Source of the DNA: Candidatus Gottesmanbacteria bacterium
GTDB lineage: Bacteria; Patescibacteriota; Microgenomatia; 2-02-FULL-39-11
NCBI GenBank assembly: GCA_016186795.1
Contig: JACPKY010000002.1
Span: forward strand, 350,748-414,747
Direction of reading: 5' to 3'
Length of the DNA: 64,000 nt
Below, in pieces: positions 31,426-51,180 of the stretch. Every line of letters starts with the position of its first letter. Position 1 is the first letter of the stretch. The translations under genes and the position numbers were made by a program. The notes beneath the pieces were generated by a model. That model saw only the letters and a list, made by a program, of their open reading frames with translations. It was not told where the DNA came from and did not search any database.

Positions 31426-32131
31426 GTCCCATCTTTTGTTGCCAAGTTATAATTTCGTCTCCCCACCTAAACCAAAAAAGGTTCTTTAGAAATTCAATAA
31501 CCGTACCAATTCTCACTGTAGATTTTCCTCCGGCACGATCGAGATTTCTCATTGGTATCTCTTTTATTTTCCAATCCAGATAATGAGCTTTCACAGCAAA
31601 TTCTGTATCAATAAAAGAATCAGCATATGTAAGTGAAAGCACTTTAAGGCGATCGCGTAAAAATATTCGAGGGCTTCCATTTATGTCTTCAACATCTATG
31701 GGAAGAAAAAGTCGTGCAAGCTTGTTATAGATTTTAGACCGAATATACCGTATAAAATTCTCGCGGTTTACTCTTTTGATTTTAACAAGGTCAAACTTTC
31801 TCTCTTTTATTTCCGAAAAAAGGATGGGGATAATTTTTTCATCAACCTGTCCATCTGAAGGCATGTAACAAACATATTTTCCAGATGCAACCATAAGTCC
31901 CTTATAAACTGCACTACCGTATCCTCTCTTTGCCCGAATAATTCTGAAATGTGTATTTTCTTTTGCAATTTTTTTAAGCACATCCCATGTTTTATCTGTT
32001 GATCCATTTTCAACTAAAACAAGTTCGTAGGTAATGTTGTTTTGATCAAGTACTTTTTTTATTTTATGTGAAATGTTCTCTATAATATCCTCTTCATTGA
32101 GAACCGGCAAGACAATTGTGAGATCAAGCAT
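31409..32131 (-). CDS. GT2 polyprenyl-phosphate glycosyltransferase (DPM1/GtrB-like). It would make the lipid-linked monosaccharide donor for GT-C enzymes.
   Basis: 240 aa. LTIVLPVLNEEDII...ELVLVENGSTDKT, and no C-terminal TM extension, as in dolichyl/undecaprenyl-phosphate mannose/glucose synthases. Confidence 0.7.
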   Translation of the reverse strand: MLDLTIVLPVLNEEDIIENISHKIKKVLDQNNITYELVLVENGSTDKTWDVLKKIAKENTHFRIIRAKRGYGSAVYKGLMVASGKYVCYMPSDGQVDEKIIPILFSEIKERKFDLVKIKRVNRENFIRYIRSKIYNKLARLFLPIDVEDINGSPRIFLRDRLKVLSLTYADSFIDTEFAVKAHYLDWKIKEIPMRNLDRAGGKSTVRIGTVIEFLKNLFWFRWGDEIITWQQKMGLKIYR

Positions 32132-33053
32132 ATTTTGTAAAATCTTTCAATATCCTGCGAACAATCGTTTCAATTGAAAGTCCGTAGATATGTCGTAAAT
32201 ATTCTTGGTTTCCAACCGTTTCAATAAATGTATCGTTAATTCCTAAGCGCTTAAAATAAATTTTTTCCTTACCTTTCTCAGACAACACCTCTGATACTGC
32301 AGTACCTAACCCTCCGACGATTGAATGCTCTTCGAGTGTGAAAATTGCCTTCGTTGCCTTAGCTACTTTGATAATCACATCTTCATCGAGAGGTTTCACT
32401 GTATGCATATCGATAATACCAGTGTCAACTCCTTTTTGAGAAAGAATTCGTGCTGCCTGAAGCCCATTGTAGACCATGTTTCCAGTAGCAATAAGAGTAA
32501 GATCAGCACCCCGTTTCAAGATAATACCCTTTCCGATTGTAAATGGAGATGTTGGTGTATATATGTCCGGTTCTCCTTTTTTCCCGAGTCGAAAATAAAC
32601 CGGTCCTTTGTGTTTTAGGATTTCGACAAATGCTGCTTTTACTTGATTTCTATCAGAGGGACACACAATGATAATATTGGGAAGACTCCTCATGATTGCG
32701 ATATCTTCAAGAGAATGATGTGTTGCTCCTGCATGTCCATACGATAAACCTCCACCGGTTCCAATAATTTTAACATTTGCATAATGAAGACAGATATCAT
32801 TTCGTATTTGCTCAAATCCTCTCATAGTAACGAATGTCGCTATACTATAAACAATAGGAGTAAATCCAGTGAGAGCAAACCCACAGGCAACTCCCATCAT
32901 ATTTGCTTCTGCAACTCCAACGTTTAAAAATTGTTTTGGGAATTTTGATTTGAAATCTTCAAAGACCGTATATCCCAGATCACCAGTTAGAAGAATTAGC
33001 TTCTTATCTCTCTTGGCAAGGATTCCTAATGACTGGACAAAGGCGTTTCTCAT
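32124..33053 (-). CDS. Transketolase, C-terminal (pyrimidine-binding) subunit of a split enzyme
   Basis: 309 aa with the transketolase pyrimidine-binding and C-terminal domains. Immediately downstream of the N-terminal subunit gene. Confidence 0.85.
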   Translation of the reverse strand: MRNAFVQSLGILAKRDKKLILLTGDLGYTVFEDFKSKFPKQFLNVGVAEANMMGVACGFALTGFTPIVYSIATFVTMRGFEQIRNDICLHYANVKIIGTGGGLSYGHAGATHHSLEDIAIMRSLPNIIIVCPSDRNQVKAAFVEILKHKGPVYFRLGKKGEPDIYTPTSPFTIGKGIILKRGADLTLIATGNMVYNGLQAARILSQKGVDTGIIDMHTVKPLDEDVIIKVAKATKAIFTLEEHSIVGGLGTAVSEVLSEKGKEKIYFKRLGINDTFIETVGNQEYLRHIYGLSIETIVRRILKDFTKYA

Positions 33054-33056
33054 TAT

Positions 33057-33959
33057 TTAATCTATTTCTTCTAACGCAGCGTAATACTGTTCTTTTTTAG
33101 GGTTAAGGTAGTGCCAGTCAATTGTATGCTCCATAAATGTCACACCTTTCCCCCGCACAGTATGACAGATTATGATTGAAGGTTTGTTGGCCGAAGCTGC
33201 TGTTTTTTTAATAGTTGATAGTAATTTTGGCATACTATGGCCATCAACTTCGAGTACATTCCATCCAAAAGCTCGCCATTTGCTAGTTAGTGGTTCAAGT
33301 TGCAAAACCTCTTCAATGCTCCCAAATGCTTGCACTTTATTGTAATCAAGGAGAACTATTAAATTCTGCAAATGGTGATGTGAGGCAAAAAGTGCTGATT
33401 CCCACGTCTCTCCTTCGTCACATTCAGCATCTGACATCAAAACAACAACCCGAAAATTTTTCTTTCTAAGCTTAGCAGATATTGCCATTCCGGCACCTAT
33501 TGATATCCCATGACCAAGAGAACCCGTTGAAATCTCTATCCCTAATACAGTATGTTTAGGGTGTTCCTCAAGAAGTCCTTTATCTTTACAATATTTGGAA
33601 AGATTTCTTTGGGGAAAAAATCCACGCAGAGCAAGCGTTGCATAAAGAGCAGGAGCGGCATGACCTTTACTTAGGATAAAACGATCACGATCATGCCATT
33701 TTGGTTTCCTAGGATTTATACGAAGAAAACTAAAGTACAAAATAACAAGAATTTCTACAATAGAGAAAGATGATCCAATATGTCCAACTTTTGACTCATA
33801 CGAAATCGTTAGAATTATCTTCCGTATAGTCTTTGCGATATTTTCAAGATCTAGTGGCTTTTTCATACAGTTTTCCATTATTTCTAAACCAATTAATTGT
33901 TTTTTTGAGGCCTTCATGAATTGAATGGCGTGGCCTCCAAGAAAGTTGCTTTTTGGCAA
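33057..33959 (-). CDS. Transketolase, N-terminal (TPP-binding) subunit of a split enzyme. The true start is probably near 33866.
   Basis: GHIGSSFSIVEILVILYF...GSLGHGISIGAGMA TPP-binding motifs. Confidence 0.85.
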   Translation of the reverse strand: MPKSNFLGGHAIQFMKASKKQLIGLEIMENCMKKPLDLENIAKTIRKIILTISYESKVGHIGSSFSIVEILVILYFSFLRINPRKPKWHDRDRFILSKGHAAPALYATLALRGFFPQRNLSKYCKDKGLLEEHPKHTVLGIEISTGSLGHGISIGAGMAISAKLRKKNFRVVVLMSDAECDEGETWESALFASHHHLQNLIVLLDYNKVQAFGSIEEVLQLEPLTSKWRAFGWNVLEVDGHSMPKLLSTIKKTAASANKPSIIICHTVRGKGVTFMEHTIDWHYLNPKKEQYYAALEEID

Positions 33960-34830
33960 GAGTTATATCTGCAACCCAGAATTCAGTATCCCATGGCCGA
34001 GGATTATACTCTCCATAAATAATTTTTGCAGAACTATTTGTGATTTTATTAATCATTGATACAACTTTTGACACGGAATATTGTTTTCCGGAACCAATGT
34101 TTATAACTTTTGCTTTCACACGTTTCGGGTTTTGCGTAAGAAGTAAAAGAGCATCAACAAAGTCATCAATGAAAATGAAATCACGGGATTCATGACCGGA
34201 AGTTATTAAAATATCCTTTTTCATCAGAGCTGATTGAATAACTGTAGGAATCAGTCTTGTCGGCTCCTCAAAGGGACCATATACTGAAAATGGTCGTACT
34301 GTTATAACTGGTTTTTCAAGCATATGTGAATAGACATTTGCAATATAAGTTGAGCCGGCTTTTGCTGCGGCATATAAACTAATTGGGTCCAAAAAATCGG
34401 TTTCTTTCATTGGTTTTCTTTTCCGACCATACTCTGATGAACTTCCAAAATTCACAAATACGTCAAAATCTATAGTTTTCAACGAAGAAAGCATATTAAC
34501 CGTACCTCCAATATTTGTATTAATGATTGATAAGGGATCCGATTGGAATGGATAGCCACCAAATGATGCAAGATGATAAATGATGTGTGGTCGGATCTTA
34601 GTAACAAGCCGATGCACTGCATCTTTTTTATTTATATCGATATCAAAATAATTAAATGAGTGCATGACATCGTCAAGTCGCCAGGTATTACTCTTTTTTT
34701 TAGAAAAACCATAAACATCGTATCCAAGATTTACCATTTTCCTTACAATATTTGCCCCTATAAATCCGGAAATCCCAGTTATAATTACCCGATTTCTTTT
34801 CATATAGATCTTCATTATAATACGACTCAC
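33844..34830 (-). CDS. NAD-dependent sugar epimerase/dehydratase (extended SDR)
   Basis: VIITGISGFIGANIV Rossmann motif, SSSEYG and YAAAK (YxxxK) catalytic motifs. Confidence 0.85.
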   Translation of the reverse strand: MSRIIMKIYMKRNRVIITGISGFIGANIVRKMVNLGYDVYGFSKKKSNTWRLDDVMHSFNYFDIDINKKDAVHRLVTKIRPHIIYHLASFGGYPFQSDPLSIINTNIGGTVNMLSSLKTIDFDVFVNFGSSSEYGRKRKPMKETDFLDPISLYAAAKAGSTYIANVYSHMLEKPVITVRPFSVYGPFEEPTRLIPTVIQSALMKKDILITSGHESRDFIFIDDFVDALLLLTQNPKRVKAKVINIGSGKQYSVSKVVSMINKITNSSAKIIYGEYNPRPWDTEFWVADITLAKKQLSWRPRHSIHEGLKKTINWFRNNGKLYEKATRS

Positions 34831-34850
34831 AAACAGTAAATTAAATCCCT

Positions 34851-35747
34851 ATGCAAAAGATGCGCTGCGCTTTGTGTGGAAGAGATGAAAAACCACAGCT
34901 TCTATACCCAGAGAGTATAAATTTCGAGCGTATTAGCAAAGAAACTTTCTCAGCAAGACGTATTCCCGAAAAAGTTCATTATCGCCTCATGCGATGCCAA
35001 AGATGTACACTTATCTATTCTTCACCCATACTTACAGAGGACAAAATAAAACTCCTATATAAGCAAAGCAAACTTACCTATGCCGAAGAAATTCCAAGTC
35101 TAAAAAAAACATACGGAGATTATCTTTCTAAAACACTTCCTTTTGTAAATAAAAATCCCCATCTTCTTGAAATTGGAGGAGGAAATGGTTTTTTCCTTGA
35201 AAAAGCACTGGAGTTGGGAGTAACAAAAGTCAATGGAATTGAACCCAGTCGCAGTGCAATTAATGCAGCAAGAAGTGATATCAAAAAAAAATTGATTGCT
35301 GATTTTTTTCCTTCAGAGAAAATAAAACCCTCTTCATATGACATTATCTGTATATTTCAAACACTTGATCATGTCACTGACCCAAACCGATTTTTACGCG
35401 CGTGTCATACCGCACTGCGAAAAAATGGAGTAGTGCTTTGCATTCTGCATGATACCGAGGGTCTGTCAGTAAAAATTTTAGGTGAGCATTCACCTATTTT
35501 TGATATAGAACATATCTATCTTTTCAATAAAAAAACACTCCAGTTGATTTTTGAGAAGAATAACTTTACACCTCTTGTTACTTTTAGCGTGGTTAATACA
35601 TTCCCACTTCGATATTGGATACGAATGTTCCCATTCCCCTCTATAATCAAACCATTATTTCTATCACTACTTCAAAACATTCACCTTGACAATTTACCAC
35701 TTAGTATGCGCGCGGGAAATATTGGAATTATTGCGAGGAAATCATAA
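34851..35747 (+). CDS. SAM-dependent methyltransferase with an N-terminal zinc ribbon (sugar C-/O-methyltransferase-like)
   Basis: CALCG...CQRC Cys4 pattern at the N-terminus, then motif I LLEIGGGNGFF. Plus strand, divergent from the SDR gene. Confidence 0.6.
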   Translation: MQKMRCALCGRDEKPQLLYPESINFERISKETFSARRIPEKVHYRLMRCQRCTLIYSSPILTEDKIKLLYKQSKLTYAEEIPSLKKTYGDYLSKTLPFVNKNPHLLEIGGGNGFFLEKALELGVTKVNGIEPSRSAINAARSDIKKKLIADFFPSEKIKPSSYDIICIFQTLDHVTDPNRFLRACHTALRKNGVVLCILHDTEGLSVKILGEHSPIFDIEHIYLFNKKTLQLIFEKNNFTPLVTFSVVNTFPLRYWIRMFPFPSIIKPLFLSLLQNIHLDNLPLSMRAGNIGIIARKS

Positions 35748-36729
35748 CTTTATTATACTTTTTAGCAATTTTACTCCAGGAAAATTTTTCTGCCTGTTTT
35801 CGGGGTTTAGTTCTGAAATCGTAAGATATAGCTTGTTGTAAAACTCGGGCGTATTCCTTCTTGTTTTCCGGATCAGCATACAAACCAGCTTTTCCTATAA
35901 TTGCACGTCTGTTCTCATCATCTGGTGCAACAACCGGTATATTGCAAGCTAGAGCCTCAAGGTAGACAAGACCAAATGCTTCTGACTCTCTACTAGGCAG
36001 GGAGAAAACAGATGCACTTCTATACAGACTTGGCAACTCACTGTGAGATAGATGTTCAATATAGATAAATCTCGTACCTAAAAGCTTCTTCCCTTGGGCA
36101 ATTAATTCTTTTTTGCGGGGTCCATTCCCTACAAGAACAAGATTTGCCTTAGGTAAAAAAGAGACTGCGTATATTAACCTGTCAATTCGTTTATAAGTAT
36201 CAAGAGCAGAAACACAAAGGATGATCGGGTGTGACATATGTAAAGGATATTTTGGTCCTTGCGGAATAAAAAGATCCGTATCAATCCCATTAGGAATATA
36301 TTCGACTTTTTTGCCGTTTCGAAGTTTTTTTGCCCAACTGGCTGCATAAGGTGAAAGCGCTACAAAAATATCAGGATTTCCGAAAACGATATTCCACAAG
36401 TCATCTTTCCCAACACCAGCATGACCGCTTATGAGAATTTTTGATTTTGTAAAATAGCGGATTATTCTTACTAGAAGAGCTTGCAATCCACCATTGACAG
36501 GAATAATCCAATCATATTTTCCGGCATGTAGTTTCGGAAAAACCCGTAAACTAAAAATAAATACTAAGAAATGATAGAAAAGTGTCGTATGTGAAACAAC
36601 CGGTAAACTTCTAGTTTGAAATATATCCACCTTGTGAGAAGAAGATAACTCTTTTTCCATTGCAGATACGAACACTTCTGCTCCTCTTTCAACTTTTCCG
36701 TTATAGATATTTAGAAATGCAATTTTCAT
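35728..36729 (-). CDS. Glycosyltransferase family 4
   Basis: C-terminal SEAFGLVYLEALACNIPVVAPDD motif. Confidence 0.75.
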   Translation of the reverse strand: MKIAFLNIYNGKVERGAEVFVSAMEKELSSSHKVDIFQTRSLPVVSHTTLFYHFLVFIFSLRVFPKLHAGKYDWIIPVNGGLQALLVRIIRYFTKSKILISGHAGVGKDDLWNIVFGNPDIFVALSPYAASWAKKLRNGKKVEYIPNGIDTDLFIPQGPKYPLHMSHPIILCVSALDTYKRIDRLIYAVSFLPKANLVLVGNGPRKKELIAQGKKLLGTRFIYIEHLSHSELPSLYRSASVFSLPSRESEAFGLVYLEALACNIPVVAPDDENRRAIIGKAGLYADPENKKEYARVLQQAISYDFRTKPRKQAEKFSWSKIAKKYNKVMISSQ

Positions 36730-37583: not shown

Positions 37584-38841
37584 GATATGCAGTAAAAAAA
37601 AGTGTTATGCCGTAAGCAATAATAAGTGAATATGCTGTACCCATCCTTCCAAATCGTGGAATAAAAAACAGATTACCAATAATAACGACAAACAATTGAA
37701 TAATGCTGTTTACTGACAATATATGAGGTTTGCGAAGATAATAAATTGCAAGACTTACAACTGGAATAGAGGCAACAAAAAAAATCATAGCGAGTAAAAG
37801 AAGTTGAAATACAGAAACTGCACTTTCCGCTTTTTGCCCAAAGAGAACGGTAATAAATGGGTGTGCAAAAAGAATAAGAACTAAAATTGTAGTGACAATT
37901 CCACCAGTGCCGATGGTTACTTTTATCATGAAGTCTTTTAATCTCTTTCTATCAGTTGTGGCAGTAAGTTTTGGAGCAATAACAGTTGAAAAACTTCCAG
38001 AAAGGAGTGGGTATATAGACACAACGCGAGAAGCAGTCGAGTAAATCCCTGCTTCAGTTGGATTTGTCAATGCAATAAGCATAAGTACATCTAACCTACT
38101 TGCCAAAGCCGTAAGTCCCCTTGCAACTCCAAGAAATGATGTAAATGAAATAAGATTTTTCAAATCAGAGATTGAGAAACGCGCTTTAAGAAATTTCACT
38201 CCAACAAATTTTATTGCTAATATTAGTAGAAGAATAACCATTACGGTATGAGCCCATAGGGCGTTATCAACGTTAAGAGTAGAAAATCCTAAAACCAGAA
38301 GGAGAAGAGCAAATCGGCTAGCTCCTCCAAAAGAAGAAAGAATCGAGACTTTAAAAAACATTTGCCGTGCTGAAAGAACATACTGCAAAAAATTAGCCAA
38401 AATCGTGCAAAAAATTCCTAGAGAGGTAATTTGGACAAGATAGGTAAGGTCTCTTGTATGAAAAAAAATTATAGAGAGAAAAGAAGATAAGAAAAATATT
38501 AATATACTTACGGTTCCTGCAACTCCCGCCTGAAGAAAAAAAGATGTTTTTAAAAATACCAGCAATTTCTGACGATCAGCCTCAAGCTTTGGAATAAATG
38601 CGGAAAGAGAGCTTCCGATACCTATATCAGTAAGATCAGATACTAAAAGAAGAAAAGATAAAAGTGCAGAAAAATATCCAAAATCTGCAAAACTTAAACC
38701 GCGAACAAGAACAACGGTAAACAGAAAAGCAAAAAAAGCAGAAATAATGTTTCCAGCAAAAACCATATATGTGTTTCGTGCTGTTGTTGAGAAAGCAAGA
38801 ATCCACGCTTTTCTTGTTATATGGGATATATATTTCTTCAT
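37543..38841 (-). CDS. wzx: Wzx-type oligosaccharide flippase (MOP/PST family)
   Basis: 432 aa, about 12-14 TM helices. N-terminal region typical of polysaccharide biosynthesis (PST) transporters. Confidence 0.65.
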   Translation of the reverse strand: MKKYISHITRKAWILAFSTTARNTYMVFAGNIISAFFAFLFTVVLVRGLSFADFGYFSALLSFLLLVSDLTDIGIGSSLSAFIPKLEADRQKLLVFLKTSFFLQAGVAGTVSILIFFLSSFLSIIFFHTRDLTYLVQITSLGIFCTILANFLQYVLSARQMFFKVSILSSFGGASRFALLLLVLGFSTLNVDNALWAHTVMVILLLILAIKFVGVKFLKARFSISDLKNLISFTSFLGVARGLTALASRLDVLMLIALTNPTEAGIYSTASRVVSIYPLLSGSFSTVIAPKLTATTDRKRLKDFMIKVTIGTGGIVTTILVLILFAHPFITVLFGQKAESAVSVFQLLLLAMIFFVASIPVVSLAIYYLRKPHILSVNSIIQLFVVIIGNLFFIPRFGRMGTAYSLIIAYGITLFFTAYLVFIYLRKKHESE

Positions 38842-39968
38842 GCGTATTTTCGGATTATAGCAGCTATTACTTCTATTTCCTCGTTTCTCAAAAATACTGA
38901 AGATGGAAGACTTACTCCATGACGAGAGAGATAATTTGAGACTGGAAATTCACCTTTCATTCTATAAGGTGGAAGTATGTGAAGAGGATAAAAAAACGGG
39001 CGAGTTTCAATATTTTCTTTACCGAGATTCTTCATAAGCTTATCGGAAGTCAGAGAATATGGTTTACGAACAAGGATAGAGTACATCCAATAAACACTTC
39101 TTTCACCCGCTTTTCTTGGATGGGGTATGATCCCCGGAATATCTTTTAATTTCATGGTATATTTTTGAGCAATCAAAACTCTTTTTTGCAAAAACTGATC
39201 AATTCTTTCAAGTTGAGCACATCCAAGAGCAGCTTGGATATTCGTCATACGATAATTAAATCCAACAACTGAATGATAATACTGTCTCTTTAAGTCCTGT
39301 CCATGGTTCCGAAGCATTCTCATCTTCTCCACTAAGCTAGAATTATTTGTCGTTATCATTCCTCCCTCACCGGTAGTTATTATTTTATTTCCATAAAAAC
39401 TAAAACACCCGACATCGCCAATCGATCCTACTTTTTTCCAATTTGTCTTATTTTTATTCTTTAAACTGACCTCGGCTCCGTGTGCTTCTGCTGCATCCTC
39501 AATAATTTTTAAATTGAATTTTTGTGCAATCGGTATAATACTTTCCATATCTGCTGGTCTCCCGTATAAATGGACAACGATTATTGCTTTCGTATGCTTT
39601 GTCACTTTCTTCTCCAGCATTTGTGGAGAAATTCCCCATGACGAGTCGTCAACATCAATAAAAACCGGAGTGGCTCCAGTAAAAGTTACCGCATTTGCTG
39701 TTGCCACAAATGTTAAATCTGGAATGAGCACTTCATCTCCTTTTCCAATCCCCAATCCAACAAGTGATAAATGGAGGGCAACTGTTCCATTTGACACAGC
39801 TATTGCATACTTAGTGCCTATATATTTTGCAAATTGTTCTTCAAACTTGGTGATAAAATTCCCTTTGGAGGAAATCCACGATGAGGAAAGGCATGACTCT
39901 ACATACTTCGCCTCGTTTCCGTGTAAATCGGGGTGAGCAATTGGTATAAATGCTCTTTTCTGCTTCAT
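38838..39968 (-). CDS. DegT/DnrJ/EryC1/StrS-family PLP-dependent sugar aminotransferase
   Basis: DLHGNEAKYVxxCLSSSWISSKG...AIAVSNGTVALHL, and the catalytic-lysine region FSFYGNKIITTGEGG. Confidence 0.9.
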   Translation of the reverse strand: MKQKRAFIPIAHPDLHGNEAKYVESCLSSSWISSKGNFITKFEEQFAKYIGTKYAIAVSNGTVALHLSLVGLGIGKGDEVLIPDLTFVATANAVTFTGATPVFIDVDDSSWGISPQMLEKKVTKHTKAIIVVHLYGRPADMESIIPIAQKFNLKIIEDAAEAHGAEVSLKNKNKTNWKKVGSIGDVGCFSFYGNKIITTGEGGMITTNNSSLVEKMRMLRNHGQDLKRQYYHSVVGFNYRMTNIQAALGCAQLERIDQFLQKRVLIAQKYTMKLKDIPGIIPHPRKAGERSVYWMYSILVRKPYSLTSDKLMKNLGKENIETRPFFYPLHILPPYRMKGEFPVSNYLSRHGVSLPSSVFLRNEEIEVIAAIIRKYA

Positions 39969-41566: not shown

Positions 41567-41605
41567 TTATTTCATTATAGCAAGTTATAGAAAAAACCAC
41601 TTTTT

Positions 41606-43171
41606 TTATTTCCCTTTACCTCTGTCAGTTACATAGGTAAGCAAAAAGGTGACCAATGAAATTATTGTAACCAACCAAAGGAAAATCGAGTATACACCTT
41701 TAAAAAACCATGGCTTGTACTGACTTACTTGTGTAAGGAAAATGGAAAAGGAAGAGATATCATAATATGTTTTTGCGATGGTGTATAAAGCATAGATATT
41801 TAAACAAATCATCAAGAGAGATAAAATAAAAATACTCCACGTATGAAGAGTACTATTGAAAGAAAAAAGTTGTCGCCATCCTATAAGAAGTATAACCATA
41901 TAGATCGAAATCGTAGGAAATAGGTACCTTCCTTGCACTCCCAAAACGTATCCTCCGGTATACCAGGAAAACCAATCGTAGTAAAAAATACTTGCGATGT
42001 ATACAAAAGCAACTCCCGCAAGAAAAAGGAGTGATTGGACTCTTCGGGAATACCACATCTTTCTTTTTACAAAGATAAAAAATGCAGGAATTAGTCCAAC
42101 AACTGCCACAAAAACTATGCGATTTATAATTCTGTGAATAGAACGAGGGTATGTCACTCCTAACCAATCATAAATGCCCCAAAACCAAGGCATTACCTCT
42201 CTTACGCTATGAGGTAGAGAATACTCCCATGTAAATTTCAATAAACTTGAAATATTATTTGTCTTCATAAACTGATCAATAAGTCCTACTGATCCAAAAT
42301 TTTTCTTGTATAACAAGATAAAGACCGCACAGATGATAAATGGAAGTATTATGACTCTTTTTGAAAAATCTTTTCGTCGTAAATCTCGAACGGCTACAAA
42401 GAAAAATAGAAGTACAACGAGAGGAAGTGTAATAATAAACTGAGGTTTCGAAAGGACACAAAAAAGAGAAGAAATAGAAAGAAATAACGCTCTATTCAGA
42501 TTAATCCCTTTTAATACCATAAGTGTTCCCGCAATAAGAAAAACAATGAAAAGAAAATTTCCCAGCGCATCACTATTTACTCCAACATTGGCAAATATCA
42601 TCATCGGCTGGAATCCTACGAGGGCAGCAATAGCGATACTTTCTTGGGTTTTTTGAAAAATACGCTTTGCAAGAGAGTAGGTGATATATATGGTACCCAT
42701 AAAAAGGAATAAGGACCATATACGTGTTGTGACAACTCGAGTAAAAAGGTCAAAGTGGTAGAAAAATTTATAAAAAAAACTTGCTGGAATATAGTACAGA
42801 GGAGGGTACCGGGTGGATTCGCGATGAACCAACTGTTTTCTTGTGTCCTCTTTTGATAAAGCTGCTAGGCTTGCCTCATACATACCATAGAACGAATCGG
42901 TATATTCAATCCGATATTCAGGATGGTGAGTAAAACGATTCTTTCCCAAATTATCCCGAAACGTACCTAAGAGTATTTCTGACGTATAGACTTCTTGTGT
43001 AAGATCGTTTTCTTCATCAATTGGCATACGTCCATTTTCAGCAAAAAAAGCTACTTGTCCAAAATGTGCTTGTTCATCAGGAAAATGCCAGAGTGGCACC
43101 AGGGACACCCATACCAGTGCATTGAAAAATACTGCGAGGAAAAAACTTGTCATTATCCTTGGGCGAACCAT
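41606..43171 (-). CDS. Polytopic membrane protein, DUF2142-like (GT-C-like)
   Basis: N-terminal WHFPDEQAHFGQV motif (the PDExAH pattern remembered for DUF2142) right after TM1, then multiple TM helices. Confidence 0.45.
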   Translation of the reverse strand: MVRPRIMTSFFLAVFFNALVWVSLVPLWHFPDEQAHFGQVAFFAENGRMPIDEENDLTQEVYTSEILLGTFRDNLGKNRFTHHPEYRIEYTDSFYGMYEASLAALSKEDTRKQLVHRESTRYPPLYYIPASFFYKFFYHFDLFTRVVTTRIWSLFLFMGTIYITYSLAKRIFQKTQESIAIAALVGFQPMMIFANVGVNSDALGNFLFIVFLIAGTLMVLKGINLNRALFLSISSLFCVLSKPQFIITLPLVVLLFFFVAVRDLRRKDFSKRVIILPFIICAVFILLYKKNFGSVGLIDQFMKTNNISSLLKFTWEYSLPHSVREVMPWFWGIYDWLGVTYPRSIHRIINRIVFVAVVGLIPAFFIFVKRKMWYSRRVQSLLFLAGVAFVYIASIFYYDWFSWYTGGYVLGVQGRYLFPTISIYMVILLIGWRQLFSFNSTLHTWSIFILSLLMICLNIYALYTIAKTYYDISSFSIFLTQVSQYKPWFFKGVYSIFLWLVTIISLVTFLLTYVTDRGKGK

Positions 43172-43175
43172 AGCA

Positions 43176-45235: not shown

Positions 45236-45238
45236 AAC

Positions 45239-46183
45239 TCATGGAACAAATGTTTTTATACCTCTTTTCAGTTTTCCTATTAATTGATTTTGCAAATTAT
45301 ATCCTTTCTGCAAACTGATCGTTCTCTTTTCTTTGGAAATGTTCCTATTTTCCCACTGGTGTATTTTTGTCGTCATGTAGGGAAAGAATTGATATTTTTC
45401 TAAAATAAGATTTCTTGCGTTTGCAACGTACTTCAAATTTTTTTTCCATATATCACTTTTTATGATCTTATTGAGTTTCTCAATACAGTCTTTGTCATTA
45501 ATATCTATGGAAACAAACGATTCTTTTGGGAAAAAATCAGTGATATTCGTACAACCAAAGTATATAGGCATAGTAAAAGCAAGATAAGCATCAGAAAGCT
45601 TTTCACTCCAATAATAGGGACCGCTATAGTTTTCTACAACAAGTGTATACCGGTAAGGGGCAAGTCCCTCCCATTTATCCGCAATCTCTTTAAACCCAAA
45701 CCCATATAAATCAAAATGTACCCTTCCTTTTATTTTTTCCAAGAATCTCATTCGATCTCTGTGTCCTTGGAAACTCATCTTTTTACTCGTTATAAAAGAA
45801 ACATTCCGAGTTTTTGAAGGCATCTTCATTTTTTTTAGCGCATCGTAATCCCGATCTATAAGCCAAGGAGTCGCTGGCTGACTCAAAATAAATTTCTCTC
45901 CGTGGAGCGATGTATCTTGGGTAAAAATTCTGTGATAATTCTTATCAAAAGAAAGAGCGTATTTGAAAAATTCATTCGGTGGTTCCTGAACTAAACACCA
46001 AACATTTTTAGGGTAGCTTCGGACTTTTACACTTTCCTTGGGATAATTTAAGACCAAAACATAGTCGTATTCTTCAATTGGATCAAGGGTAAACCTTACA
46101 TCATCCCAAATTCCCAGCGACTTTGGAGTTTGACGCAGGATATTGGGATCTTCCCAGTTTTTAATTATGCGTACATATTTCAT
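45239..46183 (-). CDS. Putative alpha-1,3/4-fucosyltransferase-like protein (GT10-like)
   Basis: C-terminal segment YRYTLVVENYSGPYYWSEKLSDAYLAFTMPIYFG resembles the GT10 motif (FYLAFENS...YVTEK...G.VPVV.G). Confidence 0.4.
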   Translation of the reverse strand: MKYVRIIKNWEDPNILRQTPKSLGIWDDVRFTLDPIEEYDYVLVLNYPKESVKVRSYPKNVWCLVQEPPNEFFKYALSFDKNYHRIFTQDTSLHGEKFILSQPATPWLIDRDYDALKKMKMPSKTRNVSFITSKKMSFQGHRDRMRFLEKIKGRVHFDLYGFGFKEIADKWEGLAPYRYTLVVENYSGPYYWSEKLSDAYLAFTMPIYFGCTNITDFFPKESFVSIDINDKDCIEKLNKIIKSDIWKKNLKYVANARNLILEKYQFFPYMTTKIHQWENRNISKEKRTISLQKGYNLQNQLIGKLKRGIKTFVP

Positions 46184-47088
46184 ACTTTTCGAAGAAAGAG
46201 CATAATACCACCTTGTGGATCGGGATTTCGAAGGGATTGTGGGATATTTCTATAAAAGCCGGGAATATTTTTCACAGCCTTTTTCCCTTCAACATCTTTT
46301 CTGGTAGCTCGTTTTCCAAGTAAACTATAGTTAGCTTTTACAATTTTGAATTTTTTTGTTATGAGAGACACTCTCCCCTGATCGTAAATACGATGAATAT
46401 TGTAGACAACCGTTGGATAGCCATAGGGTATAGTAACGATAGCATGCCCGTTTTTTTTAAGAATTCTGTGAATTTCATCCATTGTCTTTATATCACCGTT
46501 TGTATCCTGAGGGTCACCGTATCTACCAAGTCCTACATGTTCTAGTGTAGAAATTATAGTAACAATATCAACAGAATTTGAGGGAAGATTTGTATCCTGA
46601 CAATTACCGAAGATATATTCAATACCAAATCTTGATCTGAAAGGAAAATGAAGGACATCAATTGAGAGAAGCCTCTCATATGGAAGTTTTAAAAGGAAAG
46701 GTAAAATGGTAGACATACTTCCCCCTCCTCCCAAGTCAACAATTGTCTTTTTCTTTACAGTTCTATTTATCAAACAATCCGCTTGGAAGATATACTCGAA
46801 TTTGCGCAAATGGTCACCGGCATAGGCGTCCCTCAAATACTTTTTTACACCTTGGTACGTATGTTCCCCATATTTTTCCCTTATCTCATCTTGAAGCTTT
46901 TCTATAAACGTATCTCTTCTCCAAAGGACATATGAAGCAGCCACCTTTTTAACCAAAGGTGGTATATATTTTCCAATAGAGAGCTTGTCAGCAAACGACC
47001 GCTCATCAATAAGAAAATAAATCAGTTCTGCACGTTTTTTAGGACTAAATTTATATAAAAAATCTGTTGGCTTTATAGTCTTACCCAT
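46180..47088 (-). CDS. Putative SAM-dependent methyltransferase (class I, divergent)
   Basis: Gly-rich motif VDLGGGGS and post-I-like DIVTIISTLEHVG...LKKNGHAIVTIP. Confidence 0.4.
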   Translation of the reverse strand: MGKTIKPTDFLYKFSPKKRAELIYFLIDERSFADKLSIGKYIPPLVKKVAASYVLWRRDTFIEKLQDEIREKYGEHTYQGVKKYLRDAYAGDHLRKFEYIFQADCLINRTVKKKTIVDLGGGGSMSTILPFLLKLPYERLLSIDVLHFPFRSRFGIEYIFGNCQDTNLPSNSVDIVTIISTLEHVGLGRYGDPQDTNGDIKTMDEIHRILKKNGHAIVTIPYGYPTVVYNIHRIYDQGRVSLITKKFKIVKANYSLLGKRATRKDVEGKKAVKNIPGFYRNIPQSLRNPDPQGGIMLFLRKV

Positions 47089-47942
47089 GTTGGAGGAAGG
47101 ATGTCCTTGCTATTAAGAGTTGGCGTACGAAACCACTTCTCTGGCCCAATAACTATTTTTCCCTGTGAGAGCCATGCAGCCCACCAACTGAATGTACTAT
47201 TGGCAATTATATGATATTTGCACGCACTCATCAGTCGGAAATCCTCATACTCATCAATAGCATCGTTAAAATCAATGTATGTAAATACACCTTTAGGTTT
47301 GAAGTATTTTTTTACCCAATCGATACTATCAGAAAAAATATAGAAATGGGGATTCTTTACTTTCCTTTTTATAAATTCGACTGCTTTATAATAATAATCT
47401 AGAGATAACACCCCATGAATTATATTTGCTTTTACATGCTCCATGTAATCACCTCGACGAAAATGGATCGATACTGCGTGACTTTTTGGAATTTTCTTCA
47501 GAACTAGTCGATTCTTGTAAGAAGGGGGGGATTTAGGAGTGAATTCTTTGAGAAGGACTGGTCGAATTTCTTGGAAATACTTTTCGCTTTGCCAGAAACC
47601 TGATAGATAGCTATTGTCCGAAACCGTCAGAATTCTTTTATCAAAAGTGAATGCCTTTTCATAAAAAATATTGGGAAACATAGTTTCAAAAAAAATTTTA
47701 ACTTTGCGAAGAAATATACGCGGCACATAATATCCCCAGCCTAAGATAAACCTTAGGTCATCCTTTGAGGCAAAATCTTCTACAATATTAAATTTATGAA
47801 GTCTGTATGGATATAAATGTTGCTTTTTAAATTCGGTTAAATCTATTTTGAGCTGTGTATTACAGACTATAGCTAGTTTCTTTCCAAGAGCATACTGAAA
47901 CATCTGATTGCCCAACCCACCCATTAATTCAGTGATAATCAT
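47073..47942 (-). CDS. Alpha-1,2-fucosyltransferase (GT11)
   Basis: N-terminal GGLGNQMFQYA motif and HFRRGDY motif, both diagnostic for GT11 alpha-1,2-FucTs (FutC/WbsJ-like). Confidence 0.85.
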   Translation of the reverse strand: MIITELMGGLGNQMFQYALGKKLAIVCNTQLKIDLTEFKKQHLYPYRLHKFNIVEDFASKDDLRFILGWGYYVPRIFLRKVKIFFETMFPNIFYEKAFTFDKRILTVSDNSYLSGFWQSEKYFQEIRPVLLKEFTPKSPPSYKNRLVLKKIPKSHAVSIHFRRGDYMEHVKANIIHGVLSLDYYYKAVEFIKRKVKNPHFYIFSDSIDWVKKYFKPKGVFTYIDFNDAIDEYEDFRLMSACKYHIIANSTFSWWAAWLSQGKIVIGPEKWFRTPTLNSKDILPPTWVRL

Positions 47943-47947
47943 ATAAT

Positions 47948-49249
47948 TTAGTAAGAAAGTAAACTTTTATACTTTGCCAATCTCTTTTCTATTATCTCCA
48001 TACTTGTATCCTTATCATCTCTTTCTACAAAAAGACTTAAATTTAACATAGTAATAATCTTTATCACACTAGCTTTGAACTTATATTTTAGGCCTTTATA
48101 TTTTTGATTGCGTAAATATGCCTCAATGATTTCTTTTGTGCCTGTCTTTTCTTGAGAGTTTTGTTTGGCAGTTGCTAAAAATTTCGCTAATCCTTTTATA
48201 GGGTCCCCCTTTTTGAGAAAATGATTCACAGCCCAATTTCGAAGCTGAATATACGTATTTTTATTTGATTTCAACATTCGTAAAAGTTCTTCTTTCGTTT
48301 TCGCTTTTGGCACGTATCCGTACCACTCTCCTATTAGATCTTTCGGTAGCGGAAACGGCTCTAGCATAAGTATTGGTTTTTTTGCAATTGCTGCTTCAAT
48401 GAGACTCGTAGAGAAGGAAGAAACGACAATATCGCTTGCAAGTATCCAATCTCGAACGGTGTAGTCTTTGAGAATGTGTATTCTTTTTCCAAGTTCTGGC
48501 TCGAATTTTTGTACGGTTTCTAAAAACGTAGTATAGGAAGTGGCCGGTCGTGGCCGGATAATAATTTCTACATTGTCACTTTTTTTTAGAAATCGTAACC
48601 AATGGAGCACCTCGATAAGCGATTTACCGCAATAATCTCTCATTTGATAGACAGCTTTCCTGTCTTGGCCATTTTTTATTATCTCTTCAATCAAATGGTC
48701 AGAGTAAAAGTACCAAGAATAATTCTCTGGGAAAAATATCCATTTTTTCCGTTGGTCTATATCAAATTTTTTCCCTAAGATTTCTCTTGACGCGAATACT
48801 TTCCTGTATGGAGGGAAATAAAGGTAGTAAGCTGGTTGACCATTCACGAATATGTGGCTCTCTGGGACTCCTCTATCCTGTAAGAATATCGCCCGCTGTT
48901 TACTCCACGCATGATGGAGAACGCATTTCTTCGCAAAAGAGTCTCGAGGTGCTTTATATTCAATGTTTGCTCTATAAAATACTTGTTCCCAGGAAAGATT
49001 TACAAATGTTGCATCGTTCCAAGATGAAAGGTAATGTTTGAGTCCAGAATCATGTATGGAGTAACAATACGGTAAAAGAACAATTGTGGGATGAAATTGT
49101 TGAGTAAAAGAGGTAGGACGGGGATGGAAAAAGGGGAGAATCTTTACCTTCTTTTGATATTTTGATTCCAAAAGTGCTGTGGTTGCACAAGCTACGTCAA
49201 GTTCTCTCGCAAAGTGTTCAATAAACCAGACAATATCTAATTTCTCCAT
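47948..49249 (-). CDS. GT-B-fold protein of the KpsC/KpsS/TagF-like type (CMP-/CDP-activated donor transferases)
   Basis: IIRPRPATS ... ILASDIVVSSFSTSLIEAAIAKKPILML resembles the HP....NS/T-x-G-x-E-A...G-KP-v core of Capsule_synth/TagF-like enzymes. It is paralogous in pattern to 60269-61915 and 62806-end. Confidence 0.4.
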   Translation of the reverse strand: MEKLDIVWFIEHFARELDVACATTALLESKYQKKVKILPFFHPRPTSFTQQFHPTIVLLPYCYSIHDSGLKHYLSSWNDATFVNLSWEQVFYRANIEYKAPRDSFAKKCVLHHAWSKQRAIFLQDRGVPESHIFVNGQPAYYLYFPPYRKVFASREILGKKFDIDQRKKWIFFPENYSWYFYSDHLIEEIIKNGQDRKAVYQMRDYCGKSLIEVLHWLRFLKKSDNVEIIIRPRPATSYTTFLETVQKFEPELGKRIHILKDYTVRDWILASDIVVSSFSTSLIEAAIAKKPILMLEPFPLPKDLIGEWYGYVPKAKTKEELLRMLKSNKNTYIQLRNWAVNHFLKKGDPIKGLAKFLATAKQNSQEKTGTKEIIEAYLRNQKYKGLKYKFKASVIKIITMLNLSLFVERDDKDTSMEIIEKRLAKYKSLLSY

Positions 49250-51180
49250 AGTCGATGTATTGTCTGCTGGATGGTATTGCTATCAAGGCCTAAATACTTT
49301 AATACCTCTTCTCTAAATCCGGTTTGTGGAAAATCTCTCAAAGCAATATGCTCAACACGAGGAAACTGTATGCCATGAATAGTAAGATAGGCAAGTAAAC
49401 TCTCTCCAAATCCTCCTTTTTTATAGTGATCTTCAACAATGAGAAGCGGAATGCCACGTTTTGAAGCATCAAGCAACTGCTTTCTATCAAATTCTATCAA
49501 CCACGGCTGATTCCAAACTTCAACAGATATTCCATCTCTTTCCAGATTGATAGCAGCAACTATCGATTCGGCGATAACAACCGGACCGATTCCAATAACA
49601 AGAATATTTTTCCCTTCTCGTAAAATATGAGCTTTTCCCTTTTCCAGATTTTTGGAAGGTGTATTTAATTCTACTTTTCCAGAAGCCATAGACAGCCGCA
49701 CATACAAAATGTTTCCCAGCTCATTATTGAAATAACGTCCGAGAACGTTCTCTACATCTTTCGGTGTTATTGGTTGATACATGGTAACACCTGGAATATT
49801 TTTTATACAGGCAATATCACGAAATGCCTGATGTGATTTTCCGGGTGTTGCCGGAATTACCCCGGACATATTTCCGACAATAATCGCCTTTCCACCCTCA
49901 GTTGCAAGATTATAAAGTTGCTCATTCGCTCGTGAAGTGAGAAACGCAGCATAGGTAGAAACAATCGGTATTGTCCCTGATCTTGAAAACGCAGCTGCTG
50001 TTGAAACCATGTGCTGCTCCATAATCCCCATCTCAAAAAACCGTGTGTGATTTCTTTTATGGAATTCTACAAACCCTGAGTCTTCCTCAAGGTCTCCATC
50101 GAGCGTTACAAATTGATACTTTTTTGCAAAGTCTAAAAGAGCATCTGAAAATCCTGTAATAAGACTTGAACCACGCACATCTTTTTGCATTGGCTCTTTC
50201 GGAATATCCTTAAGTGATAAACTTAAATCAATGACGAAGCCAAAACTACTCATTAAATCCTTCACTCTTTTATAAATTTCTCTTAATGCCTGGTCTAACT
50301 GTTTCCTGTCAGGAGCTTTGTTGTGCCATATATATCGATCTATTTTGCTTTTTAAAACATTAGGATGCTCCATGTAAGAAACACCTTGACCTTTCACGGT
50401 GCGCATATAGAGTAATTTCGGTTTCTTTGACTTTGCAAGTTTCATGAATCCATCATGGATATTTTTAATCTTTTTACCGTTTTTTTCTACGACAGTAAAA
50501 CCAAGGGACGACAGTGTATGTACTATATCGTTATACTTAAGAATATTTTGAGTGAACTGGTCCGTCTGAACGCTATTATCATCAATAATGATGTAGAGGT
50601 TATCTACTTTGAAACTTACTGCCGAAAGAAGCGATTCCCACAATTGACCCTCTTGAAGTTCTCCATCTCCAACAATCACGATGACGCTTCCTTTATACCC
50701 CATACGCTTTTTAAAAAGTGCGAAACCAACAGCTTTTGAAATTCCCATAGCAAGGGATCCCGTGTTTGCTTCAATTCCAGGAGTTTCAATATCACAATGT
50801 CCGGAAAGACCATGAAGACGGCGCAACCGGTTAAGATTTTCGATTGGAAAGTAGCCTTTTGCAGAAAGTGTAGCATAAAGAGATGGGACGGCGTGACCTT
50901 TGGAAAGGATAAAAATATCTCTGTCTTTGGAGGAACTCTCTTTGGGGGAAAAGGAAAATGATCGAAAATATATTTCTGTAAGGAGTTCAATGATGCTAAG
51001 GGAAGCTCCCAGATGTCCAGTCCCTGCCCTTGCTACACTAAGTAGTGTATTGTATCGGATCAAATCTGCGATGGCACTCAAAATCTTTGCTTTTCCTTTT
51101 CCTCCCTGAGATTTTTTTTCAAGAAAGAGAAAACTTTCTTGGGAAATAAAACCTAGATTATTTAATAGATTCATAATCAA
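49237..51180 (-). CDS. Transketolase-like enzyme with N- and C-terminal sections fused (647 aa), the second transketolase in the locus
   Basis: TPP-binding N-terminus (ARAGTGHLGASLSIIELLTEIYF, GSLAMGISKAVG), then pyrimidine-binding and C-terminal domains. Confidence 0.8.
   Translation of the reverse strand: MIMNLLNNLGFISQESFLFLEKKSQGGKGKAKILSAIADLIRYNTLLSVARAGTGHLGASLSIIELLTEIYFRSFSFSPKESSSKDRDIFILSKGHAVPSLYATLSAKGYFPIENLNRLRRLHGLSGHCDIETPGIEANTGSLAMGISKAVGFALFKKRMGYKGSVIVIVGDGELQEGQLWESLLSAVSFKVDNLYIIIDDNSVQTDQFTQNILKYNDIVHTLSSLGFTVVEKNGKKIKNIHDGFMKLAKSKKPKLLYMRTVKGQGVSYMEHPNVLKSKIDRYIWHNKAPDRKQLDQALREIYKRVKDLMSSFGFVIDLSLSLKDIPKEPMQKDVRGSSLITGFSDALLDFAKKYQFVTLDGDLEEDSGFVEFHKRNHTRFFEMGIMEQHMVSTAAAFSRSGTIPIVSTYAAFLTSRANEQLYNLATEGGKAIIVGNMSGVIPATPGKSHQAFRDIACIKNIPGVTMYQPITPKDVENVLGRYFNNELGNILYVRLSMASGKVELNTPSKNLEKGKAHILREGKNILVIGIGPVVIAESIVAAINLERDGISVEVWNQPWLIEFDRKQLLDASKRGIPLLIVEDHYKKGGFGESLLAYLTIHGIQFPRVEHIALRDFPQTGFREEVLKYLGLDSNTIQQTIHRLWRN

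Follow-up and report, generated by a model that had tools for sequence, protein, structure and literature searches.

A 64-kb window of the ~1.12-Mb contig of an uncultured bacterium of the candidate phyla radiation (CPR), Candidatus Gottesmanbacteria (GenBank assembly GCA_016186795.1, contig JACPKY010000002.1), carries two sets of transketolase-like (TK) genes within a large surface-glycan locus: a split pair, TK-N (33057-33959) and TK-C (32124-33053), and a fused full-length gene (49237-51180), all on the minus strand. A preliminary description of this DNA had singled out these open reading frames (ORFs), and they are present with the domains expected of them. Judged from their sequences, both sets appear to encode active thiamine diphosphate (ThDP) enzymes of the transketolase fold, drawn out of central metabolism to serve in two separate sugar-tailoring modules. 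That both have a dedicated role in glycan synthesis, rather than serving as housekeeping transketolases, we consider very probable. The best overall explanation of their chemistry, in which our confidence and our doubt are about equal, is that both make or break a carbon-carbon bond with a two-carbon (C2, glycolaldehyde-type) unit on sugars other than the ordinary sugar phosphates.

Both enzymes contain the three domains of transketolase. These lie in one chain in the fused protein (Transketolase_N, Transket_pyr and Transketolase_C, with E-values of 4e-34, 2e-18 and 6e-19, respectively) and are spread over two ORFs in the split pair, where TK-N, the ThDP-binding subunit, has only Transketolase_N (PF00456, 4e-45) and TK-C has Transket_pyr (7e-35) and Transketolase_C (1e-27). 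The best relatives in the PDB are human transketolase for the fused protein (1e-64) and the Carboxydothermus split transketolase for TK-C (3e-72). Nonetheless, the scores with the NCBIfam transketolase model all fall below its cut-off: 342 bits against 488 for the fused protein, 251 bits for TK-N and 225 bits for TK-C. Nor do the window enzymes belong to neighboring branches of the ThDP superfamily. With the model for DXS, the synthase of 1-deoxy-D-xylulose 5-phosphate, the fused protein reaches 165 bits (cut-off 466), and the position of the second phosphate-binding Arg of DXS is occupied by Met in the fused copy and by Lys in the split copy; TK-N scores 154.6 bits with Transketolase_N versus 26.6 bits with E1_dh, which places it outside the E1_dh proteins of the alpha-KADH2 type. 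The fused protein as deposited begins at the ATG at 51174, has 645 aa, and is 100% identical to the Ca. Gottesmanbacteria hypothetical protein HYW55_03155. The true start of TK-N is probably the ATG at 33878 or 33866, giving a protein of 269-273 aa like its homologues in two other metagenome-assembled genomes (MAGs), L087 and L088 (loci are designated here by L and a number); a start at the TTG at 33959 would create a 116-nt overlap with the upstream gene.

The functional residues of human transketolase, whose numbering is used here, were mapped on alignments of 120 homologues per protein; the residue states given for the fused family are those of 45 close homologues, and 75 more distant ones show similar changes. 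The fold, the ThDP/metal motif, the activating Glu and the His cluster are common to both window enzymes and to canonical transketolase (EC 2.2.1.1; human TKT, 4KXU, and the split enzyme of Carboxydothermus hydrogenoformans, 6YAK/6YAJ). H37, H77, H110, H258, E366, D155 and N185 do not vary in either family, and the cofactor and catalytic set (H37, K75, H77, H110, D155, N185, K244, H258, E366) is kept throughout by the fused family and, apart from K244 (Arg, Met or Lys), by the split family. It is in the residues that hold the substrate that the window enzymes depart from the canonical ones. The fused copy has lost the phosphate-binding Arg318, His416 and Arg474 and the stereo-determining, aldose-orienting Asp424, the positions R318, H416, D424 and R474 being I, M, P and M. 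In its family as a whole, Arg318 is replaced by Ile, Val or Thr, His416 by Met or Leu, Arg474 by Met, Leu, Ala or Ile and Asp424 by an invariant Pro, while Ser345 (Ser or Ala in canonical enzymes) is Asp in all 45 close homologues and Phe389 is Tyr. Of these residues, TK-C keeps only Arg318, with Gly at 416, Lys at 474 and Ala at 424. The split family likewise retains Arg318, which is also Arg in canonical split transketolases; it has Thr or Ser at 345, Ile at 389 in nearly all members, Gly at 416 in 120 of 120 homologues, Ala, Leu or Tyr at 424 (Asp in 5 of 120), and Lys or Arg at 474. The TK-C signature therefore reads R-T-E-I-F-G-H-A-H-K, versus R-S-E-F-F-H-E-D-H-R in the canonical enzyme. 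With Arg318 retained and a Lys at 474, the split enzyme would bind sugar phosphates more weakly but may still do so.

As a control, 55 canonical split transketolases were treated by the same procedure, a CPR enzyme from Kaiserbacteria among them, the row list also holding the human and the solved Carboxydothermus enzymes; the canonical split enzymes keep H416, D424 and R474 in nearly every case (R-S/A-E-F-F-H-E-D-H-R). Neighbor joining of the Pyr+C domains, with 67 sequences, 302 columns and 100 bootstraps, gives the same picture. In 99-100 of the 100 bootstraps each window family is a clade of its own, apart from the canonical split and the human transketolases; the mean Pyr+C identity is 38% between the canonical and the split family, 29% between the canonical and the fused family, and 27% between the split and the fused family. 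Such separate clades and low identities indicate that the locus holds two transketolase-derived families, and the earlier notion of two copies of one enzyme is hence misleading, the two belonging moreover to independent modules.

The fused gene belongs to a minus-strand cassette, which in the window has the order NeuB-like synthase, short-chain dehydrogenase/reductase (SDR), aldehyde dehydrogenase (ALDH), membrane protein with 12 transmembrane (TM) segments, cytidylyltransferase, fused TK, and TIGR04396/BFO_1060-like protein. The synthase (56256-57320; NeuB and SAF domains; PF03102, 1.5e-76) is a phosphoenolpyruvate-condensing ulosonic acid synthase of the NeuB family, which scores 299 bits with the NeuB model and 246 bits with the PseI model, both under cut-off. 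There follow a classical SDR (55465-56259) and an NAD(P)-dependent ALDH (53976-55439; PF00171, 4e-154) that stays under every NCBIfam equivalog cut-off and whose top PDB matches are ALDH1B1 and D-glyceraldehyde dehydrogenase. The polytopic protein (51946-53955; ~12 TM-like segments) is inserted into the cassette and missing from that of a 62%-identical relative, the MAG locus L005, which reads NeuB-SDR-ALDH-CMPT-TK (CMPT, cytidylyltransferase). As the preliminary description had reported, the fused TK lies beside a cytidylyltransferase: it directly follows a CTP_transf_3 gene (51158-51934; PF02348, 4e-21; PseF model 142 bits, cut-off 205.7) that resembles the cytidine monophosphate (CMP)-ulosonic acid synthetases, and the two are translationally coupled by an overlap of ~20 nt. 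Downstream of the fused TK, the TIGR04396 “surface carbohydrate biosynthesis”/BFO_1060-like protein (47948-49249; NCBIfam match) is a putative CMP-sugar transferase, with homologues downstream of TK in L004 and L031 and farther downstream in L005. The PDB matches of the ALDH, the SDR and the NeuB-like protein offered no clue to the substrates.

This arrangement is widespread. When GTDB was scanned at one genome per species, 27 fused-type loci came up at 33-37% identity, in Deltaproteobacteria, Vicinamibacterales, Obscuribacterales, Melainabacteria, Bdellovibrio-like bacteria, Chloroflexota, Polyangiaceae, Methylobacter, Chromatiales, Verrucomicrobiota, Bacteroidota and Actinomycetota. Same-strand neighbors were counted in 25 fused-type loci (scan loci plus L005) with at least 5 kb upstream and compared with those of 36 canonical split-TK loci. 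A NeuB homologue accompanies TK in 21/25 fused-type versus 0/36 canonical loci, an SDR in 20/25 versus 1/36, an ALDH in 21/25 versus 0/36, and a cytidylyltransferase in 22/25 versus 0/36; all four partners are present in 16 of the 25 and at least three in 20, as against none of the canonical loci in either case. The cytidylyltransferase directly adjoins TK in most related loci, and the two genes usually overlap. Domain-level maps give NeuB-HAD-SDR-ALDH-CMPT-TK as the usual order, found in Deltaproteobacteria, Acidobacteriota, Melainabacteria, Chloroflexota, Methylobacter, Verrucomicrobiota and Actinomycetota; the additional HAD phosphatase, of the KdsC type (Hydrolase_3), is present in 13 fused-type loci. 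In a locus from Verrucomicrobiae (L021, 6713-8044) it is fused within the cassette to the SDR (HAD at residues 18-166, SDR at 181-443), an argument for the NeuB product, once dephosphorylated, being the direct substrate of the SDR. The cassette extends to the archaea: in a Micrarchaeia (DPANN) genome (L170, GCA_038891275.1), NeuB-HAD-SDR-ALDH-TK is flanked by Capsule_synth genes of the KpsC/KpsS-like Kdo transferase family (Kdo, 3-deoxy-D-manno-octulosonic acid). That ultra-small bacteria and ultra-small archaea have the cassette in common points to horizontal transfer or to a common envelope chemistry. Two apparent peculiarities of these loci were rejected. The ALDH-TK and CMPT-TK fusions suggested by very long ORFs (L024, L025, L029) are spurious N-terminal extensions in high-GC DNA, with the ALDH match in another frame, and the HAD-SDR protein of L021 is the only real fusion among those suspected; the “two SDR copies” of many loci are an artefact of single-linkage clustering, the extra gene being the HAD phosphatase.

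The product of the cassette is probably a CMP-activated, Kdo- or sialic acid-like acidic sugar. The pathways for sialic acid and for 2-keto-3-deoxynononic acid (KDN) combine a NeuB-family synthase, a KdsC-type phosphatase and a CMP-synthetase; an example is the KDN-9-phosphate synthase and phosphatase of Bacteroides thetaiotaomicron. The fused cassette resembles these in its NeuB-like synthase, the Hydrolase_3 phosphatase of its relatives and its CTP_transf_3 enzyme, and, as in a nonulosonic acid cassette, synthase and cytidylyltransferase share one operon, being conserved together with TK in 21 to 22 of the 25 loci. It differs in its extra SDR, ALDH and ThDP enzyme and in the genes that are missing: no Epimerase_2 gene and no precursor set for pseudaminic (Pse) or legionaminic (Leg) acid was found within the cassette (NeuC, PseB/C/H/G, LegB/C/H/G and KdsD were sought), and the synthase and the cytidylyltransferase are under all equivalog cut-offs for the Neu5Ac, Pse, Leg and Kdo enzymes. 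From these scores and missing genes it follows that the product would be a CMP-activated 3-deoxy-2-ulosonic acid of unassigned identity.

From the observed fold, catalytic residues, lost substrate residues, clades and synteny we infer substrates, direction of C2 transfer and order of steps. For the fused enzyme we propose, tentatively and with considerable doubt, that it excises a C2 unit, since no other variant finds a task for each enzyme of the cassette in succession. The NeuB-like synthase would build a 3-deoxy-2-ulosonic acid, as its phosphate in the relatives, where the HAD enzyme would then remove the phosphate and free the terminal CH2OH. The SDR would oxidize the penultimate side-chain hydroxyl, creating HOCH2-CO-CHOH-, the motif that transketolases cleave; the TK-like enzyme would take off the terminal C2 unit; the ALDH would convert the new aldehyde into a carboxylate; and the shortened ulosaric (dicarboxylic) acid would be activated by the cytidylyltransferase. 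Sugars of this class do occur, since heptulosaric acid (Dha) is present in the lipopolysaccharide of Acinetobacter haemolyticus (PMC4019464). Dha is cited only as an example of the class and was rejected as the actual product, because the stereochemistry derived from KDN would be L-arabino and not D-lyxo.

The split pair has a module of its own, in which a methyltransferase gene is transcribed divergently from the series SDR, TK-N, TK-C and GT2 (a family 2 glycosyltransferase), with neighboring genes that overlap or are 3 nt apart. Directly upstream of TK-N lies an extended nucleotide-sugar SDR of the dehydratase/decarboxylase/epimerase type (33844-34830, minus strand; PF01370, 3e-50), which has the motif GSSSEYG, matches the LegB and RmlB models below cut-off, and has a UDP-glucuronic acid 4-epimerase (6zl6) as its top PDB match. 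The end of TK-C is overlapped by a small GT2 of 240 aa (31409-32131, minus strand), whose best matches are the polyprenyl-phosphate sugar synthases PgfS, ArnC, AglJ and PpgS; a small GT2 occupies the equivalent place in L087, L088, L090, L103, L109, L133 and L169. The S-adenosylmethionine-dependent methyltransferase (34851-35747) is on the plus strand and has a matching divergent place in L087 and L088, where the whole module is identical in arrangement (56-62% identity). The split-type relatives comprise 83 metagenomic loci, 74 of them with a called downstream gene. A DegT/EryC1-type sugar aminotransferase is directly downstream in 23 of the 74 and within two genes in 30, a small GT2 is directly downstream in 8, and a Bac_transf gene is just upstream in 15; neighbors of the SDR or DegT kind are generally common. 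The residue subtype of the window enzyme (Thr345, His423, Ala424) tracks the SDR-TK-GT2 arrangement. One metagenome contig (L169, Ga0209542_10000619) carries two split-TK modules in opposite orientation (TKN-TKC-GT2 ... GT2-SDR-TKC-TKN-MT), an observation which shows that the module can duplicate within a locus.

For the split pair we favor C2 branching, a proposal whose chances we place just short of even. The SDR would yield a nucleoside diphosphate (NDP)-keto-sugar, and the TK-N/TK-C heterodimer would put a hydroxyacetyl (C2) branch on its ketone, using hydroxypyruvate or a ketose as donor; the retention of the histidines that recognize the CH2OH group of the donor makes hydroxyacetyl the probable unit transferred. 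The new ketone could, in many relatives, be transaminated by the DegT neighbor. The branched sugar would be methylated and then loaded on polyprenyl phosphate by the small GT2, and the locus's membrane transferases of the GT-C type would then use the lipid-linked sugar. This scheme resembles the Arn pathway (ArnA/ArnC/ArnT), in which an NDP-sugar is remodeled via a 4-keto intermediate, transferred by a small GT2 to polyprenyl phosphate, and passed on by a GT-C transferase. The window encodes a GT2 resembling ArnC as well as several polytopic proteins, PMT_2 or other, a likeness that is one of analogy only; the remodeling by the split TK would be ThDP-dependent C-C chemistry, whereas that of Arn is transamination and formylation.

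A number of points weigh against these proposals. The equivalence of residues was established by sequence alignment, and the Arg318 region is gapped. The ThDP motif of TK-N is S-D-A instead of the near-universal G-D-G, although both metal ligands, Asp and Asn, are in place; S-D-A is also found in L087, and S-D-G in L088 and L089. The NDP-sugar SDR of the split module could instead serve the LegC-like aminotransferase at 38838-39968. As for the fused enzyme, excision needs a C2 acceptor or a release route, neither of which is evident, and the pocket of the enzyme, hydrophobic and with an extra Asp, is odd for a carboxylate-bearing substrate. The cassette itself varies: L032, L013 and L017 are without the ALDH, L014 and L031 without the SDR, and the CPR version without the HAD phosphatase, gaps which imply that SDR and ALDH could be dispensable, serving to tailor the sugar or to remove by-products. 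One cluster (L171) contains, besides TagF-like Glyphos_transf genes, a 2-hydroxyacid dehydrogenase (2-Hacid_dh) that could make hydroxypyruvate, and this would fit the addition of a C2 unit better than its excision. Finally, even the split transketolases of Streptomyces were never shown to be active in vitro (PMC12247030).

The main rival of excision is that the fused TK adds a C2 unit, moving hydroxyacetyl from hydroxypyruvate or a free ketose to give a C-branched or two-carbon-longer ulosonic acid; we regard this as distinctly doubtful. The acceptor, a ketone or an aldehyde on the ulosonic acid or on its derivative with CMP, would be made by the SDR (or by the oxidation of a primary alcohol). 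ALDH and SDR would either provide the donor, by way of glyceraldehyde, glycerate and hydroxypyruvate in turn, or dispose of an aldehyde by-product. To our knowledge, no branched or extended ulosonic acid that fits has been described, which counts against such an addition. The donor-binding histidines are, however, retained, the ALDH resembles D-glyceraldehyde dehydrogenase among others and is missing from some cassettes, as an accessory enzyme would be, the L171 dehydrogenase is possibly a hydroxypyruvate reductase or a glycerate dehydrogenase, and the genes of the CMP-transferase and TK are usually adjacent and overlapping; the chemistry, too, is that proposed for the split TKs of nucleoside antibiotics (PMC12247030). 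Yet an ALDH in 21/25 loci is a high frequency for a mere helper, and the HAD-SDR fusion suggests that the SDR substrate is the dephosphorylated sugar and not glycerate. Another role, closer to what the preliminary description had in mind when it had the transketolases feed the NeuB-like synthase, is the supply of precursors: from free sugars, which the lost phosphate-binding residues would suit, the enzymes might make an unusual aldose or ketose for the NeuB-like synthase (fused) or for activation to a nucleotide sugar (split). NeuB and TK are indeed the most constant pair of the cassette. Transketolase products, on the other hand, are 2-ketoses, which are not substrates of NeuB-type synthases; the KdsC-type phosphatase after NeuB in about half of the cassettes implies that NeuB takes a phosphorylated aldose, which the fused TK is unlikely to bind; and the conserved module of the split pair has no kinase, isomerase or nucleotidyltransferase. 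We therefore treat the feeding of NeuB as one of several possibilities, and precursor supply in general as improbable.

Still less probable is that these are 2-oxoacid-decarboxylating carboligases of the DXS or E1 kind, which would use pyruvate to build a branch, acetyl or hydroxyethyl, or would take the carboxyl group off the ulosonic acid itself. In their favor are lower-ranking Pfam and NCBIfam hits to DXP synthase and E1, as well as a Lys that is conserved in the fused family two residues before an active-site His (consensus PGKSHQ) and could hold a carboxylate; YerE and the alpha-KADH2 enzymes do branch sugars using pyruvate (PMC12247030). The transketolase models nevertheless outscore those of the alternatives (342 versus 165 bits for the fused protein against DXS, 155 versus 27 bits for TK-N against E1_dh), the full histidine set of transketolase is retained, H110 and H258 included, and decarboxylation would destroy the very center that the CMP-transferase needs. 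The preliminary description had also asked whether the two copies might be nothing more than the pentose-phosphate transketolases of the organism, lying by chance among glycan genes. As a rule, CPR bacteria depend on the pentose-phosphate pathway in its non-oxidative form, often with split transketolases, which lends this idea some initial appeal. It is, however, contradicted by essentially all the evidence and is already largely refuted, so that we give it hardly any credence: the canonical substrate residues that the Kaiserbacteria split TK keeps are lost in both copies, both are under the equivalog cut-offs and in separate clades (100/100), their gene boundaries overlap those of glycan genes, and their synteny with sugar-modifying genes is tight across phyla, including Methylobacter, whose genomes with the fused cassette presumably have a tkt of their own. 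Two of the checks that the preliminary description proposed, phylogeny against housekeeping Tkt (separate clades, 99-100/100) and conservation of gene neighborhood (both modules recur in distant genomes), agree with one another, and, with the sub-cut-off scores, the missing substrate residues and the similar sugar-gene neighbors in distant genomes, its claim of dedicated glycan-pathway enzymes is supported. Its more specific suggestions have fared less well. A ketose phosphate is an unlikely product of the fused copy, in which Arg318, His416 and Arg474 have given way to hydrophobic residues and Ser345 to Asp in 45/45 of the closest homologues, and neither the duplication of a single enzyme nor NeuB feeding as the specific role is supported.

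Among known systems, the closest counterparts of the split pair are found in antibiotic biosynthesis. For the miharamycin and amipurimycin clusters, plus 13 further Streptomyces clusters, split-gene TKs have been suggested to move a hydroxyacetyl unit onto a keto sugar (PMC12247030). This agrees with what was remarked earlier, that such split enzymes turn up repeatedly in sugar clusters and that their substrates are largely unknown. Like the window pair, the miharamycin and amipurimycin TKs are split N/C genes beside a sugar oxidoreductase in a sugar-biosynthesis cluster, with a function that is proposed only; the likeness noted here is one of gene layout. They lie in actinomycete antibiotic clusters and serve a nucleoside-linked high-carbon sugar, whereas the window split family belongs to surface-glycan loci in uncultured bacteria, CPR members included, where its companion is a GT2 of the polyprenyl-phosphate type or a DegT aminotransferase. 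By this analogy, the split pair would be a new setting for the keto-sugar branching proposed for split-gene TKs, so far reported only from Streptomyces antibiotic clusters. NDP-4-keto-sugars are also C-branched by YerE and by E1 alpha/beta (alpha-KADH2) pairs (PMC12247030). Both YerE, of the decarboxylase family, and alpha-KADH2 (aldgamycin; KbDH of kibdelomycin) carry out a ThDP-dependent C2 addition to an SDR-made nucleotide-keto-sugar, as proposed for the split pair; the alpha-KADH2 pairs share its two-subunit layout, and the branch ketone is sometimes transaminated, a parallel to the DegT neighbor of the split family. They differ in belonging to another branch of the ThDP superfamily and in using pyruvate as donor of an acetyl branch, while the window proteins keep the His residues for a hydroxymethyl donor and match Transketolase_N better. 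The window enzymes also differ from canonical transketolase in that their neighbors are glycan genes, not genes of the pentose-phosphate pathway. Transketolases outside that pathway include those for sulfofructose and apulose. These and the transketolase-ACP (acyl carrier protein) platform of the tetrahydroisoquinoline antibiotics (Peng et al. 2012, as cited in PMC9371744) are, like the window enzymes, split transketolase homologues that move a C2 unit in a specialized pathway. Their substrates are ketose phosphates or sulfonates, however, their anion-binding residues are kept, and the unit goes to a lipoyl/ACP partner or the pathway is catabolic; no lipoyl/ACP partner is present in the window modules.

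The locus in which both modules reside is of considerable size. The first 10 kb of the window hold cell-division and housekeeping genes (Mur ligase, PBP, MraW, RecO, tRNA synthetase); the glycan locus begins at ~10.2 kb with a DUF4012 gene and then a Bac_transf initiating transferase (12182-12841), comprises at least 52 kb and ~45 genes, nearly all on the minus strand (10241-64000), and continues past 63.8 kb beyond the end of the window. About 5% of the genome (main contig 1.12 Mb) is thus spent on one surface-glycan system directly downstream of the dcw genes. Its content includes GT2, GT4, GT10, GT11 and GT-C-like proteins, a flippase and a Wzy_C-type protein, together with methyltransferases, a carbamoyltransferase and enzymes for sugar nucleotides; both TK sets lie amid glycosyltransferase, methyltransferase and flippase genes, much as first described. 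The Wzy_C (O-antigen ligase/polymerase) domain is part of a 1046-aa protein (18287-21427) with ~19 TM-like segments, which far exceeds the usual size of Wzy/WaaL. Six other polytopic membrane proteins (25980-27377, 28234-29727, 29752-31425, 39965-41566, 41606-43171 and 51946-53955), with 4-12 TM-like segments each, match PMT_2 (twice), DUF2079, DUF6798, DUF2142 and, weakly, DUF6541; they are probably GT-C-type transferases using lipid-linked sugars, in a number unusually high for a single locus.

Several other genes of the locus hint at further decorations of the glycan. A GT10-like protein (fucosyltransferase C-terminal domain), a DUF268 methyltransferase and a GT11 protein (alpha-1,2-fucosyltransferase family) stand in a row at 45239-47942; the same set is found downstream of the fused TK in L004 and L005, and it recalls fucosylation of the Lewis/H-antigen type, here in a CPR bacterium. 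Between the fused-TK cassette and further transferases, a NodU/CmcH-type carbamoyltransferase (58430-60265) suggests an O-carbamoylated sugar. The LegC-family aminotransferase (38838-39968; 384 bits, cut-off 420) and a hexapeptide acyltransferase (22352-22981) could, together with the LegB-like SDR at 33844-34830, form a separate branch to a 4-amino-4,6-dideoxy-hexose that competes with the split TK for the keto-sugar. Two minus-strand genes recur beside the fused cassette elsewhere. A soluble protein without a Pfam or NCBIfam match (60269-61915) has homologues near TK in 6 loci of other phyla (e.g., L005, L009, L012, L015, L028), and a TagF/Glyphos_transf-like putative transferase (62806-63840; weak BFO_1060 match), which matches the Glyphos_transf protein of L171 at 1e-16, has homologues after TK in L007, L011, L014, L023 and L050.

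A search of the full-text literature found no paper describing the fused-TK cassette or the split-TK module, the apparent matches having proved irrelevant. It is possible, though somewhat more doubtful than not, that the fused family marks an undescribed pathway, spread across bacteria and DPANN archaea, in which the side chain of a Kdo- or sialic acid-like sugar is remodeled by a ThDP enzyme that excises or adds a C2 unit. If this is true, it would yield an acidic sugar, CMP-activated and new, such as a heptulosaric acid, and the first ThDP-dependent step in ulosonic acid biosynthesis; we know of no description of how heptulosaric acid is made. The split family, if our proposal for it is true, would provide the first transketolase-type C-branching enzyme of cell-surface glycans. 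Thousands of metagenome genes annotated as “transketolase” or “DXS” are probably sugar-tailoring enzymes, which a simple signature separates: His416/Asp424/Arg474 in the true enzyme versus Gly/Ala/Lys or Met/Pro/Met. For the biocatalytic synthesis of tertiary alcohols, in addition, there is demand for transketolases able to act on ketones or on cyclic sugars without a phosphate (PMC12247030). The fused cassette is a five-to-six-enzyme system open to reconstitution, and it likely makes a hitherto unknown nucleotide-activated acidic sugar; the product sugar is likely displayed on the surface of CPR bacteria, DPANN archaea and members of many environmental phyla, organisms whose envelopes are chemically unexplored.

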